Of a DNA stretch of 64,000 bases, positions 45,996 to 54,439 are shown piece after piece. The stretch lies in contig NC_059444.1 in the NCBI RefSeq assembly GCF_905237065.1, positions 51,942,644-52,006,643 of the forward strand, given 5' to 3'. Below the pieces are notes generated by a model. The model saw only the letters and a program-made list of their open reading frames with translations. It had not been told where the DNA came from and searched no databases. The translations under genes and the position numbers were made by a program. This stretch comes from Salmo salar. Taxonomy: Eukaryota. Position 1 is the first letter of the stretch. Every line of letters begins with the position of its first letter.

Positions 45996-47199
45996 CCGGA
46001 AGAACGATTACGAGTAAAGTGATTTACTGGACGACTGCTGTTGTGTAGATATTCATAAACTCACTAGATACGCTTGATAGTACGAAACCCATTGTAGTAT
46101 CTAGTTCCTTTGCTCTAGGAGCCTATTGACGCAGTACTGACAAATGTTTTTTTATAACAAATGCTGCGTTCAAGTGCTAGTCGGAACTATGAAACGTAGA
46201 AATGTCCGACTGGTGAACGCGGTACGTCTATTACTTCAAACAGTTAACAAGTCTGAAATATCCGAGTTTCCAAGTTCCGACTGGTACATGAACGCGGCAT
46301 AACCCTGTGGTAGGCTACCATCGCTCGGTTTCTTTCACGTCATCAGTCGCTTCGAACACACCGATTGCGTCATTGCATCAACGCTGCATAACATTTTGCA
46401 CAGCTAGGCAACTATACTTATGCAGGTATCTTTTGCAGACGGTCGCATGCGGTTGGACACATATGGGCCCTAGGGGACCTTTTCCCATTGTTATCATACT
46501 AAATGTATGTCGTATAACCTTAATTAGAGGTCCGGCTCACCTGATGTTAATGGGAGAGGGAAGGGGTTAAGGTGTGGTCTTTACTCCCAAATTTCACTTA
46601 AATATAACTTCCAAATGAAGAGAGACAAGGAGACATAAATAATCTGGGGGGAAAAAATACAATTTTATGTACAATGGTGGATGGTTCTTAAAATAACCTT
46701 GGTGTTAGGGGACTTTAAAAGAGACGTTTCACTCCACGGCATGCTGCCATGGGATTTCACCTGCTGGCGATGAGAAGTAGGTGGTCAGCTTCTCTCACCT
46801 GGAGTGCCAGTCTGGGGGCGTTGTTGGCACCTGCCCTGGTGACATCAGGTAGGTGACCATTGGCGTGCCCGTCTCCATCCGGAGCGGCTCCTGGAATGAC
46901 CTCTGCAGGTAGTTGTGGAGAACTTCACGCAGGCATCGACATTTGAGGGGCTGAGACCAAGCACTCTCCACTGCACCTGTACATAGCGCATCTATAAATA
47001 GCCCAAACAGCTACCTCTTCCCCTACCGTATTAATTTAGCTCCTTTGCACCCCAGTATTTCTACTTTGCACAAATCTACCATTCCAGTGTTTTAATTGCT
47101 GTATTGTATTTACTTCGCCACCATGGCCTATTTATTGCCTTTATCTCCCTTATCTCACCTCATTTGCTCACATTGTATATAGACTTATTTTTCTACTGT

Positions 47200-47557
47200 T
47201 GTAGAAAAAGCCCATGGAGTTGGTGGAATAATCCTTTAATTCATTGCCACTTACTCAGCTGGGCCAGGGGCACTTTAATTAGGTCAGGTGGAAATGTCCG
47301 ACAGATCTCCACTCCATAAAAGGAGGAAATCACCATCGACTGATCGCGCTGCTTTCTCTTCCTTCACTCTGTCAAATCCAGAAGTTCTGTGCGTCCATGA
47401 ATCCACACTACTCAGAAAATATACCACTTTATGGTTAAAGGAATTCCTGCCTCAGTCTCATCCATTCCTCTGTCACCTGACCCGTGACCACCTGTTCACC
47501 CTCACTGTCAGTCATCCTACCAGTCCAGCTACCCACACAGATTCCACTAATCTTTCA
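47200..47557 (+). repeat. BEL/Pao 5' LTR
   Basis: See the element entry. The right LTR differs at about 7 positions (for example atcaccatcgac vs atcatcatcgcc, ctgtgcgtcc vs ctgtggatcc). Confidence 0.9.
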
Positions 47558-48490
47558 ATGGTCCTTCAAGCCGGATGATGACGGAACCAAAGACAGGTGG
47601 AAAGGAAATGAAGGGGGAGAATGAGGAATTGTCTCCACTGGAAGGAGGGAGAAAGGAAGAGAGAGCAGCGGAGGGAAAGGTCCTGGAACAACGAAAAGGT
47701 CCAGGAGCTAAGCCTAAAGTAACAAAGGCTTCATCCTCAACCACCAGTAGTACCAGGAGAACCAGGCAAGCACCTGGTTATCTTAAGGATTATGTGGTTG
47801 AGTTTCCCACATCCAAGGGCAAGCCCACCAGAGCTCAAATTGGTGATGGATCAGCTGTACGTTTCAGCCATCAACCATCCCCTCTGGACCAAGGACCAGA
47901 AACTGCTTTGGTACGGGAAAGTGGTCTACAGGAAGAACCTATGGAGGAGGTAACTCCCACCGCACAGGTCGACCAGCTTCCTGAGACCGGCTCCGCTCAC
48001 CCCTTAACTGAAGGGAAATCGTCGAGGCACTCTAGACGGAGTGAGAGTTGGATGTGGCCATGGCAGCCGCCATTCACTAGCCCTCAGCGAATCACAGACC
48101 GCTGTCCTACAAGAGAGGATGAAACTATTACCGTTGGAGGAAATTGAGCGTCAGACTGAGGAGGAACGACAGGCTGACGAACGATGTCACCTATTGGATG
48201 TGCAAGCCCGTAGAGCTCTACAGGAAAGGGAATTCATTGCCAAGGACCTGGCACAGCAGTGACGGCACCGTCAAGCAAGAAGGGAATTGGAGGAGGCACG
48301 GATGGTCTCATCCTTCCTGGAGAGGAACGAACAGTGAGCTGACCTGACCACCATTCCAGATGGACCTGACCTGTCTGCCTTTCTTTCCCAATCTGCCCCT
48401 CTGGTACAGCATGGCACACAGTCCCCGGAGGCTCCAAGGTCAACAGCCAACACGGAGCACGGGGGACAGACCACTCCGCAAACGCCCTCT

Positions 48491-51400
48491 ATGCCAGTGA
48501 CAGAAGTTAGCTTTCCTCCATCTGGACAAAGCATCACTCCTTCGCCTTTCCGCCAATTACCAACCATGGCAAATCATTCCTCTCGTCCAGGGCCTGGACC
48601 AGGCCAGTCCTCAGACGGCAGGTGGGAGGGCTCTCACCCAATTCCGGCTGCCACCCATGGAGGGTCTGGGACAGTAGGGGACAGGCCCAATGAGGCCACA
48701 GTGGGCTCATCAGAAGTCCCGGGTTTATCCTTCACGCAACCAGAAGATGGAGCCAACATTATGAAACTGCTAGCAGCCTCAGCCTATGGAATTCCCAGAC
48801 CCAAACTGCCATACTTTGAGAGCGGAAAGGAGAGTGAATTTGTCCTTTTGGAAATGGCATTGGAGAGCCTACTGGGTATTCACAGTCATCTGTCAGAACG
48901 ATACAAGTACCAAGTACTAATGGATCACTTGCGGTTTCCTAGTGCATACAAGCTGGCCCAATCCTTTATGCACTCTGCAATACCATACACTGCCTCTCTC
49001 CAGGCCCTGAAAGCGAGATATGGTGAGCCACGCCAGCTAGTCCAGAATGAACTAAACAACATCCTGAACATGTCTCCAATTAAAATGGGAGACCATGCTG
49101 CCTTCCAAGAGTTCTCCCTGGCTGTCCAATCCCTGACCTCGATGCTCCAATCCGTTGAAGGAGAAGACGGGAACGAGCTGAAATGTGGCTTCCACGTGGA
49201 CAGGCTTCTTAGCAAGCTTCCAGCGTCCCTCAGAGACAGTTTCGTTGAACATTGTTTGAACAAAGGCATCCTGAAAGAGGGCTTGAGAAGCACCTATGCT
49301 CTCAGAGACCTGGCCGCATGGTTGCAGGTGAAAGCGAGGGTGAAGAGCATCGCTCACCAGGCCACAATCTCAGCCATAGTCTACGGGGGAAGGAAGGAGT
49401 TTGAACGCCAGGAGGGACAGAAAAGGCCAACTCCCACTACTATGTACTTAAATAGTGAAGCTGGGGAGGAACCCGGGAAGAAGACCCCTCTCAAGAGCAA
49501 GAACATCAAATTTCAGCCTTACTGCCCATATTGCAATAGTAAGGGGCACTTCCTTGGCTCATGCCCCAGGGTAAAAAAGCTCACTCAACCTCAATTGAAG
49601 GCTTGGATCACTTCAGGCGAGCAATGCTACAAGTGTGCCCGTAGCCATAAGGCGGAGACCTGCACATTGAGGAAACCCTGCAATCGCTGTACGGAAATCC
49701 ATCTCACAGTGTTGCATGATGTAATTCCCCAAGCACAGAAAGAGCAGAGTATGCTCATGGTAGGAGCTGTAAAGGAGCTCTACCTCGACCAGCAGAACCG
49801 GTCTCCAAGGGTCATGTTGAAGGTGGTCAAGGTCACTCTGTGGAGTGGAGGGAGAAGCATTGATACATTCGCCGTTCTAGATGATGGGTCTGAACGAACA
49901 ATCATTCTCCCGGCGGCCACCCGACAGCTTAACCTGGAGGGGATCCCCGAGACCCTTAATCTCAGAACGGTGCGACATGATGTTATCCAAATGAAAGGCT
50001 CTGCTGTGACCTTCAGCATTTCCCCTTCAGGAAACAGGGACGTGACCTATACTATCACCAATGCCTTCACGGCGGATGGCCTGAATCTTGCAGAGCACTC
50101 CTGCCCGGTAAGTGTTCTACAGAAACAATATCCTCATCTCCGAGGATTGCCTCTTCCTAGCCTGGCCAGAGTAGCTCCACTTATCCTGATTGGGTCAGAC
50201 CACCCACATCTCGTCACCCCGACTGAGCCTATACGAGCTGGACCAGAAGGCGGGCCCGTTGCTGTCCATACATCCTTGGGTTGGGCTGTGCAAGGTCCAG
50301 CCCATTTACTTCTCTCCACCCAAGCTGTACAGTCACAGCAAGTCCTCTTCACCAGATGCAATCCATCCCCCTGTCCAGCTACTGACCTCCTTCGGAATGT
50401 TGAGATGCTATGGAAGATGGACACCTTTTCCAACCGGAAGCTACAGGAGGTCACTCGCTCTAAACAAGACTCCTATGCATTAGACCTCCTGGAGAAGCGC
50501 ACCACCACCACTGAAATGGATGGCGTTCGGAGGTACGCAACCCCACTGCTACGGGTGCCCAACCATCCTCCTCTGGCAACCACGACGCGGGCTGTACTCC
50601 CACTATTGCGTGGAACGGAGCGACGCCTGGTGAAGAATCCTGAGCTTGCTGAAGTTCATAACCAAGAGATTCATAACCTTGTAAAGGCAGGCTATGTCAC
50701 CAAAGTGACAACTCAAGAAGAGGGAAACGCACTCGGCGAATCCTGGTATCTCCCTCATCATGTTATCCAGCAACATGGTGGGAAGTACAGACTTGTCTTC
50801 AACTGTTCATTCCAAGCTGCTGGTCAAAGCCTGAATGACTGTCTACTCCCCGGAACAATTTTAGGTCCTTCCTTGCTCGGTGTCCTTCTCCGGTTCCGGC
50901 AGCACTCTACAGCCATCAGTGGAGACATCAAAGCCATGTTTCATCAGATTCATCTGCTGCCTTCCGACACTACACTGCTCCGGTTCATATGGCGAGATAT
51001 GGAACGAGACGCAGAGCCCACAATCTATGAATGGCAAGTACTCCCATTTGGCACCACCTGCAGTCCTTGCTGTGCCATATACGCTCTGCAGAGACACGCA
51101 CGGGAGCACCCAGACAGTGACCCAGAAGTATGGGATTCAGTGGAAAATGACTTCTATGTGGATAACTGCTTACAGAGCGTCCCATCCACGGCTGAAGCGA
51201 AAGCACTCCTTGACAAAGTACGGAATCTCCTGTCCAAAGGGGGATTTGAGGTCCGACAGTGGGCGAGTAACAGAGCGGAGGTTATCCAGCACCTCCCGCC
51301 ACAAGCCAGGTCTAGTAGCAGTGAACTATGGCTATCGCAGTCTGGCGCTAACCCACAAGAGCCCACTCTAGGATTGAGATGGAGCTGCATACCGGATACC

Positions 51401-53715: not shown

Positions 53716-53759
53716 GCCTTTTTTGAGGAGTGTGGAAATTAACCAATTTCCGGGGTGGC

Positions 53760-54117
53760 TGTAGAAAAAGCCCATGGAGTTGGTGGAATAATCCTTTAAT
53801 TCATTGCCACTTACTCAGCTGGGCCAGGGGCACTTTAATTAGGTCAGGTGGAAATGTCCGACAGATCTCCACTCCATAAAAGGAGGAAATCATCATCGCC
53901 TGATCGCGCTGCTTTCTCTTCCTTCACTCTGTCAAATCCAGAAGTTCTGTGGATCCATGAATCCACACTACTCAGTAAATATACCACTTTATGGTTAAAG
54001 GAATTCCTGCCTCAGTCTCATCCATTCCTCTGTCACCTGACCCGTGACCACCTGTTCACCCTCACTGTCAGTCATCCTACCTGTCCAGCTACCCACACAG
54101 ATTCCACTAATCTTTCA
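53760..54117 (+). repeat. BEL/Pao 3' LTR
   Basis: See the element entry. Confidence 0.9.
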
Positions 54118-54439
54118 ACTGTATTATTGACCATATGTTTGTTTTACTCCATGTGTAACTCTGTGTTGTTATATGTGTCGAACTGCTTTGCTTTATCTTG
54201 GCCAGGTCGCAGTTGTAAATGTGAACTTGTTCTCAACTTGCGTACCTGGTTAAATAAAGGTGAAATAAAAATAAATAAAAAACATTCTCCACCGGGCTGC
54301 CAGAATCCCACAGGCGCATTCAACCTTACTCCGAATAAGGATTTTAAACCAACTTTGGGAAAAGTTATAGTCCTAATGAACATTCTATAAAAGTACATCT
54401 CATGTCACATAGGGTCTATTAACTAGAGAGCCCTTTAGC

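Follow-up and report, generated by a model that had tools for sequence, protein, structure and literature searches.

A BEL/Pao long terminal repeat (LTR) retrotransposon lies at positions 47195 to 54122 of a 64,000-nucleotide stretch of the Salmo salar genome (NCBI RefSeq assembly GCF_905237065.1, contig NC_059444.1, positions 51,942,644 to 52,006,643 of the forward strand). This stretch is referred to below as the window, and all coordinates are given within it. A preliminary description, made from the sequence alone, presented the element as a young copy, of a kind seldom so well preserved in vertebrates, with a single Gag-Pol open reading frame (ORF) of 1563 amino acids (aa). Two features were thought to make it non-autonomous: motif C of the reverse transcriptase (RT) reads F-Y-V-D-N where YVDD is expected, and a frameshift interrupts the integrase. 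The locus therefore raises the question of whether YVDN is a lesion at all and, if it is not, what has disabled this copy. We conclude with high confidence that the element is a full-length but defective copy of a BEL/Pao (Belpaoviridae-type) retrotransposon of salmonids, and that it decayed neutrally after insertion. Its motif C is the normal one of its clade, and its Gag-Pol frame is broken in four places.

Motif C of the reverse transcriptase

The motif was read as described previously:

51152-51166, + strand: RT motif C, F-Y-V-D-N (TTC TAT GTG GAT AAC), the normal state of the clade

A word-indexed protein search with the full 2046-aa query returned 16 matches, none of them salmonid, and the salmonid copies were recovered with shorter integrase and N-terminal queries. 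The eight closest homologues, which include proteins from Alosa, Oreochromis, Mugilogobius and Sarotherodon, were 48-63% identical to the element and 1473-2059 aa long (1896-2059 aa for the full-length ones). All eight read FY(V/I)DNCL at motif C, and BEL/Pao proteins at 26-36% identity read YxDD. An exhaustive HMMER search with the RT region produced 7613 matches at E<=1e-30; the named proteins of the first search carry Peptidase_A17. Among 150 representatives of the HMMER matches, nearly all those that were at least about 45% identical and spanned motif C read Y(V/M)DN, in about 30 clusters. Two plainly degraded representatives in this range of identity read YVEN and YVHN, and most representatives at or below 42% identity read YxDD. 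A neighbour-joining tree, computed without bootstrap, placed the window element with 16 other N-bearing sequences and excluded all D-bearing ones. YxDN also occurs in Daphnia and pseudoscorpion proteins that are only 30-37% identical in pairwise BLAST comparisons.

The best protein matches were Salmo salar XP_014068408.1 (97% over 446 aa, in the integrase) and XP_014048430.1, which identifies the element as a salmonid-type sequence. XP_014048430.1 represents a second copy of the family in Salmo salar, and its motif C is FYVDN. The same motif is encoded by a tilapia relative (L004), whose LTRs are identical at 820/820 positions and whose ORF is uninterrupted. Because this element combines identical LTRs and an open ORF with FYVDN, a YVDN-encoding element must have transposed very recently. 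These comparisons indicate that YVDN is the clade's normal motif C and not a lesion. The preliminary description had treated it as a sign of non-autonomy, unless the family itself should prove to carry it. Since the close relatives, the second salmon copy and the intact tilapia element all do, and the whole clade reads Y(V/I)DN, that argument no longer holds. The conservation of the motif and its presence in young intact elements further suggest that a YVDN RT is catalytically competent. In this clade, YVDN must accordingly not be scored as an inactivating mutation. Published work already names YVDN as a hallmark of the belpaoviruses Cer7-13 and Atlas of nematodes (PMC554778, PMC9094657), and a literature search for YVDN in BEL/Pao elements of fishes brought up nematode reports only.

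Structure of the element and breaks in its Gag-Pol frame

The ends of the element, all on the + strand, are as follows:

47195-47199: 5' copy of the target-site duplication (TSD), ACTGT; the same 5-mer is present at 54118-54122
47200-47557: 5' LTR, TG...CA, 358 bp, equal to the 3' LTR at 352/358 positions
47559-47575: primer-binding site (PBS), TGGTCCTTCAAGCCGGA, beginning 1 nt past the 5' LTR; complementary to the 3' end of tRNA-Tyr-GTA at 16/17 positions, the one mismatch being a CpG>CpA decay
53750-53759: candidate polypurine tract, CCGGGGTGGC, proposed from its position abutting the 3' LTR
53760-54117: 3' LTR, TG...CA, 358 bp
54118-54122: 3' copy of the TSD, ACTGT, adjoining the 3' LTR

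LTRs in direct orientation with TG...CA termini and a short flanking TSD are the structure expected of a BEL/Pao element. Both LTRs start with TGTAGAA and end with TCTTTCA. Their alignment gave 98.3% identity (K2P, the Kimura two-parameter distance, 0.017), with 6 differences (2 transitions and 4 transversions, two of the sites being adjacent) at 47333, 47339, 47392, 47393, 47416 and 47522. The reported LTRs, TSD and identity of about 98% are thus confirmed, together with the youth deduced from that identity; the earlier count of about 7 differences was one too high. Within the 64-kb window the two LTRs match only each other, and neither further copies of the element nor solo LTRs were found. 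The candidate polypurine tract is unchanged in a sister copy (contig L002), and its counterpart in the tilapia relative is GGGGGCGGCTG.

The PBS-like tract noted in the preliminary description proved to match tRNA-Tyr. The reference used was the human tRNA-Tyr-GTA, not a salmonid one, and its 3' end is ATTCCGGCTCGAAGGACCA (PMC12095417); the complement of this end was found just 3' of the 5' LTR at 16/17 positions. A sister copy with 91.5% nucleotide identity, L001 (a Logan SRR27230256 contig with an uninterrupted N-terminal ORF, P0287), has TTTGAGCC / TGGTCCTTTGAGCCGGA at its PBS. This is the other product of CpG decay, so that the window element and L001 carry two decay products of TCGAG. The intact relatives L005 and L004 carry a perfect 17/17 PBS, TGGTCCTTCGAGCCGGA. 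Since the site is perfect in these relatives, the clade uses a tRNA-Tyr PBS that is mutated in the window copy, and actual priming by tRNA-Tyr is probable on this complementarity. The similarity of L001 to the window LTR starts only at LTR position ~205 (98% against the 3' LTR). Nothing in the first 250 nt of the contig matches the U3-side half of the LTR, and its internal part is only 91.5% identical. L001 may thus represent a subfamily whose U3 differs, a recombinant or a chimeric contig.

Between the LTRs, the following coding features were located on the + strand:

47575-48047: N-terminal part of Gag-Pol, frame 1, from the ATG at 47575 to a 20-nt deletion; homologous to the N-termini of P0002, P0004, P0007 and P0287
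48491-53182: ORF of 1563 aa, the largest surviving piece of Gag-Pol, with DUF1759, Cys/His boxes, protease region, RT, RNase H and part of the integrase
49523-49717: three Cys/His boxes, CX2CX4HX4C, CX2CX3HX4C and CX2CX3HX4H
49877-49891 and 50180-50200: protease region, motifs LDDGS and LILIGSD
51710-51721: RNase H motif CDAS
52631-52732: integrase HHCC motif
52826-52843 and 53009-53026: first two catalytic Asp of the integrase, the D in VDCFGP and the D in LADRGT
53161-53715: C-terminal part of the integrase, out of frame (catalytic Glu and DUF5641), stop at 53713-53715; 97% to XP_014068408.1

Pfam models matched the 1563-aa ORF for DUF1759 (1.5e-09), RVT_1, Peptidase_A17 (3.2e-47) and Integrase_H2C2. 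DUF5641 (E=2.4e-27) was found on a second ORF, 53158-53715, which is 185 aa long and in a different frame from the first. The scores of Peptidase_A17 (the Pao retrotransposon peptidase), DUF1759 and DUF5641 all exceed the curated cut-offs, and these three models are signatures specific to BEL/Pao. These matches bear out the BEL/Pao identity first proposed, and the RT groups with BEL/Pao RTs. Of the Pfam domains that had been suggested as a check, Peptidase_A17, RVT_1 and DUF1759 were thus detected, while neither rve nor DUF1758 gave a match with E<0.01 to the 1563-aa ORF; the integrase core and the protease were for this reason assigned through motifs and alignment to relatives. The order along the rebuilt frame is DUF1759, Cys/His boxes, LDDGS/LILIGSD, RVT_1, the Peptidase_A17 region, CDAS, HHCC, D, D, E and DUF5641, that is, the Gag, protease, RT, RNase H and integrase order of BEL/Pao elements in one polyprotein. 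The catalytic Glu is the 49th residue past the second Asp. Cys/His boxes had been reported as two CCHC knuckles; they are present, and there are three.

The presumed active site of the protease reads L-D-D-G-S (DDG) at 49877-49891, in place of the DSG/DTG usual for retropepsins. DDG is conserved in all close relatives, including an abalone protein, and Pfam protease-type models gave no match over the 49877-49891 region. The window element therefore has neither the canonical YXDD nor DSG/DTG. Because YVDN and DDG are clade-wide deviations, found in intact young elements as well, and YVDN is an accepted belpaovirus variant, they do not exclude membership of BEL/Pao. The element is a defective copy of a known type, in which every structural and sequence hallmark of BEL/Pao was found apart from these two motifs.

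The 1563-aa ORF is not the whole of Gag-Pol. Relatives have one ORF of ~1900-2060 aa, which aligns from residue ~48-55 of the window frame starting at 47575, so that the 0.9-kb stretch preceding the 1563-aa ORF must be coding as well. By this alignment the ORF is the remnant of a frame of ~2050 aa starting at 47575. Four lesions on the + strand separate the two:

48047-48048: lesion 1, a 20-nt deletion with frameshift; L001 has TTCGACCAGTGGATACCCCT there
48260-48262: lesion 2, an in-frame TGA from CGA (Arg), a CpG transition; CGA in L001, the Arg being conserved in homologues
48335-48337: lesion 3, an in-frame TGA from GGA (Gly); GGA in L001
53159-53160: lesion 4, loss of 1 nt from a G run (TGGGAG>TGGAG), one codon ahead of the catalytic Glu of the integrase (GTW|EREIK)

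Lesions 1-3, which fall in the N-terminal part of Gag, were identified by base-by-base alignment with L001. Lesion 4 changes ACATGGGAGC to ACATGGAGC; in the integrase sister copies (Salmo salar XP_014068408.1, P0168 and contig L002) the sequence is ...NPPGAPHFGGTWEREIKSVK..., with HFGGTWEREIK unshifted. Lying one codon upstream of the catalytic Glu, it puts this residue and the whole of DUF5641 out of frame. Programmed frameshifting at the integrase was considered and rejected, as all relatives and sister copies read straight through. At several residues that do not vary among relatives, the window copy also has private missense changes, such as G>R in HFGGTW and R>C in ARLRLL. An autonomous element would require an uninterrupted Gag-Pol with its catalytic residues in frame; here two deletions and two TGA codons interrupt it.

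The late integrase frameshift reported near 53.16 kb is thus a real 1-nt deletion in the catalytic core. The 1563-aa ORF exists as described, but it is not a single Gag-Pol ORF with only two defects, since the 20-nt deletion and both TGA codons lie upstream of it. BEL/Pao elements are present in most teleost genomes (PMC4350176), and fully intact relatives exist in several fishes, so that the window copy is not unusually well preserved, contrary to the first impression; those relatives surpass it in this respect. ORF-based calls of intactness miss such lesions when the true start sits at the PBS, ~0.9 kb upstream of the longest ORF. The first ~100 residues of P0291 (nr: torsin-1A-like, Salvelinus alpinus) match the Gag N-terminus of the element with 59% identity. 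This entry is probably a chimeric annotation of transposable element and host sequence, and its match shows that Arctic charr has the family too.

Insertion, decay and alternative explanations

The element interrupts another repeat, as had been proposed. The two halves, for which no strand is assigned, are:

46969-47194: left half of the host interspersed repeat, colinear with the uninterrupted paralogue L003
54123-54279: right half of the host repeat, ending ...CTGGTTAAATAAAGGTGAAATAAAA, colinear with the same paralogue

L003, a contig of ENA ERZ1023261, was recovered from metagenome contigs with a degenerate pattern spanning the predicted empty site. The rebuilt empty site (46969-47199 + 54123-54279) aligned to it with 85% identity over 410 nt, colinearly and without a gap at the junction, and the target 5-mer is single in L003, as ATTGT. 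Because the alignment is gap-free and the 5-mer occurs once, the flanks belong to a single interspersed repeat that the element has split in two, and ACTGT is a genuine TSD. A second copy of the host repeat across the junction was sought inside the 64-kb window, and none was found. Two further stretches of the window, 19287-19345 and 60555-60612, are 76-79% identical to the A-rich tail motif of the repeat (...AACTTGTTCTCAAC...CCTGGTTAAATAAAGGTGAAATAAAA), indicating either that the repeat belongs to an abundant family or that its 3' tail is common to other repeats. Rfam and tRNA scans of the window gave no matches to a tRNA-derived SINE (short interspersed element) head or to a tRNA-Tyr gene.

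The history that we prefer is the following. RNA of the family was reverse-transcribed, probably from a tRNA-Tyr primer, by the family RT, with YVDN as its normal motif C, and the cDNA integrated into the pre-existing repeat, duplicating the 5 bp ACTGT. Neutral decay has probably since then left a few changes in each LTR (6 in total), removed one CpG of the PBS and broken the ~2050-aa ORF four times, by the 20-nt deletion, the two TGA codons and the 1-nt deletion before the integrase Glu. The copy can no longer make Gag-Pol and gives rise to no new insertions, unless perhaps it serves as a template for mobilisation in trans. We simulated this decay by applying half of the LTR-LTR divergence to the 6.1-kb coding sequence. 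The simulation gave ~52 substitutions since insertion and 2.1 expected new stops, against 2 observed; neutral decay after insertion is therefore sufficient to account for the damage. If the neutral rate is taken to be 1-5e-9 per site per year, an age of ~1.7-8.5 My would follow for the insertion.

Three other explanations of the damage were considered. In the one nearest to the preliminary description, the 1563-aa ORF is a complete Gag-Pol, and the D>N change of motif C and one integrase frameshift are the only defects that inactivate the element. This explanation fits both the YVDN reading and the reality of the frameshift. It also fits retroviral RTs, in which, as cited in PMC554778, a change of either Asp of YXDD abolishes activity. 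We nevertheless regard it as highly improbable: every close relative has YVDN, as do the second Salmo salar copy and the tilapia element with its identical LTRs and open ORF, the variant is known from nematode belpaoviruses (PMC554778, PMC9094657), and three more lesions lie upstream of the 1563-aa ORF. At the other extreme, the lesions might be errors of sequencing or assembly in a truly intact, potentially active element. Lesion 4 is the loss of 1 nt in a GGG run, a typical context for sequencing errors. The four lesions are however of three kinds, comprising deletions of 20 nt and 1 nt, a transition and a transversion, and with the 6 LTR differences, the mutated PBS and the private missense changes at conserved residues they form a coherent picture of ~1-2% neutral decay rather than of local error. 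There is very little chance that this explanation is correct.

The remaining alternative places some or all of the lesions before the insertion: proteins of an intact family member would have packaged the broken RNA of an already defective copy and reverse-transcribed it in trans. That defective LTR elements can be mobilised in trans is well established, and the present data are compatible with lesions older or younger than the insertion. Yet none of the four lesions (0/4) is common to the sampled sister copies L001/P0287, L002/P0168 and XP_014068408.1, and the number of stops fits the divergence accumulated by the LTRs after insertion. Moreover, the decay product of the PBS CpG differs between the window copy and L001, which implies that this change arose independently in each. 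We consider earlier damage unlikely, though less so than the other two alternatives, and favour neutral decay following insertion of the copy.

Several points weigh against this preferred history. The sister copies from which the lesions were called are paralogues of 91-97% identity (Logan/JGI contigs and RefSeq models), not a curated consensus, and the comparison covers these sampled copies and one uninterrupted paralogue of the host repeat. The 20-nt deletion is placed by alignment only to within a few bases, and lesion 4, in its short G run, could if taken alone be a sequencing error. Activity of a YVDN RT is argued from conservation and from young intact elements.

Other repeats are present in the window. 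A 3.9-kb segment occurs twice in tandem, at 31760-35699 and 35618-39559, with 99.8% identity. Each copy contains an identical 233-aa ORF (32548-33249 and 36406-37107) with RVT_1 and RT_RNaseH_2 matches, Ty3/gypsy-like; the pair could be a real duplication of a transposable element fragment or an assembly artefact. An ORF at 27042-27533 (+) encodes helix-turn-helix (HTH) domains of Sleeping Beauty/Tc1 transposases, and an RVT_1 fragment at 10986-11585 (-) has a second copy, 83% identical, at 42428-43194.

Comparison with known BEL/Pao elements

Elements of the same clade were found in other teleosts and elsewhere in salmon: the Oreochromis niloticus element that encodes LOC109203254 (CM007489.2:3827856-3842828), and Salmo salar XP_014068408.1 / XP_014048430.1. 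The window element and this teleost clade have in common TG...CA LTRs, a 5-bp TSD, and a single Gag-Pol ORF whose start is overlapped or adjoined by a tRNA-Tyr PBS, together with LDDGS, FYVDN, CDAS, an integrase with HHCC and DDE, and DUF5641. In the polyprotein, identity to the other fishes amounts to 50-63%, and in the integrase, identity to Salmo salar is 97%. The tilapia element (L004, CM007489.2) shows this organisation undamaged, with the identical LTRs, the perfect PBS and the uninterrupted ORF mentioned above and a TSD GTTAT. Its LTRs are 820 bp long, against 358 bp in the window, where the frame is broken in four places and the PBS has one mismatch. A perfect internal tandem duplication of 2793 bp in the gag region of the tilapia element (L004:3386-6478) leads to a genomic ORF of 2990 aa; the RefSeq model (2059 aa) splices this duplication out.

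The nematode belpaoviruses Cer7-Cer13 and Atlas virus resemble the window element in their BEL/Pao-type Gag-Pol and in the YXDD>YVDN change (PMC554778, PMC9094657), but they carry env in addition and lie on another branch. The window element has no room for an env-like ORF, because Gag-Pol fills 47575-53715 and the 3' LTR begins at 53760. The Sinbad, Pao, Dan and Suzu superfamilies (Copeland 2005; de la Chaux & Wagner 2011) have, like the window element, three Gag Cys/His boxes and the RNase H DAS, and the long DD(~49)E spacing of the Sinbad integrase (PMC554778) is found here as well. Sinbad, Pao and BEL differ in reading YVDD, with DSG in the protease, where the clade of the window element reads YVDN and DDG.

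The YVDN/DDG clade extends beyond fishes. The abalone protein Haliotis rufescens XP_048240270.1 (P0307; a second abalone entry, P0020, is XP_048259935.1) is 49.8% identical to the window element over 1643 aa, compared with 52.7% for tilapia, and an integrase fragment from the starfish Asterias rubens (P0204) is 57% identical to it. We tentatively suggest, as a possibility well short of even, that the YVDN/DDG clade spans teleosts, abalone and probably starfish, and that it is currently active, as the identical LTRs of tilapia would indicate. The similarity between fish and mollusc elements might reflect ancient conservation or horizontal transfer among aquatic animals. If its N arose independently of that in the nematode Cer/Atlas elements, belpaovirus RTs would repeatedly have come to do without the second catalytic Asp, a residue essential to retroviral RTs. 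The locus itself is a dead transposable element copy nested in a repeat, with no sign of host function. The pattern of its clade, in which YVDN and DDG occur with a tRNA-Tyr PBS in fish and molluscs, provides a modest lead for retroelement enzymology and for the classification of transposable elements.

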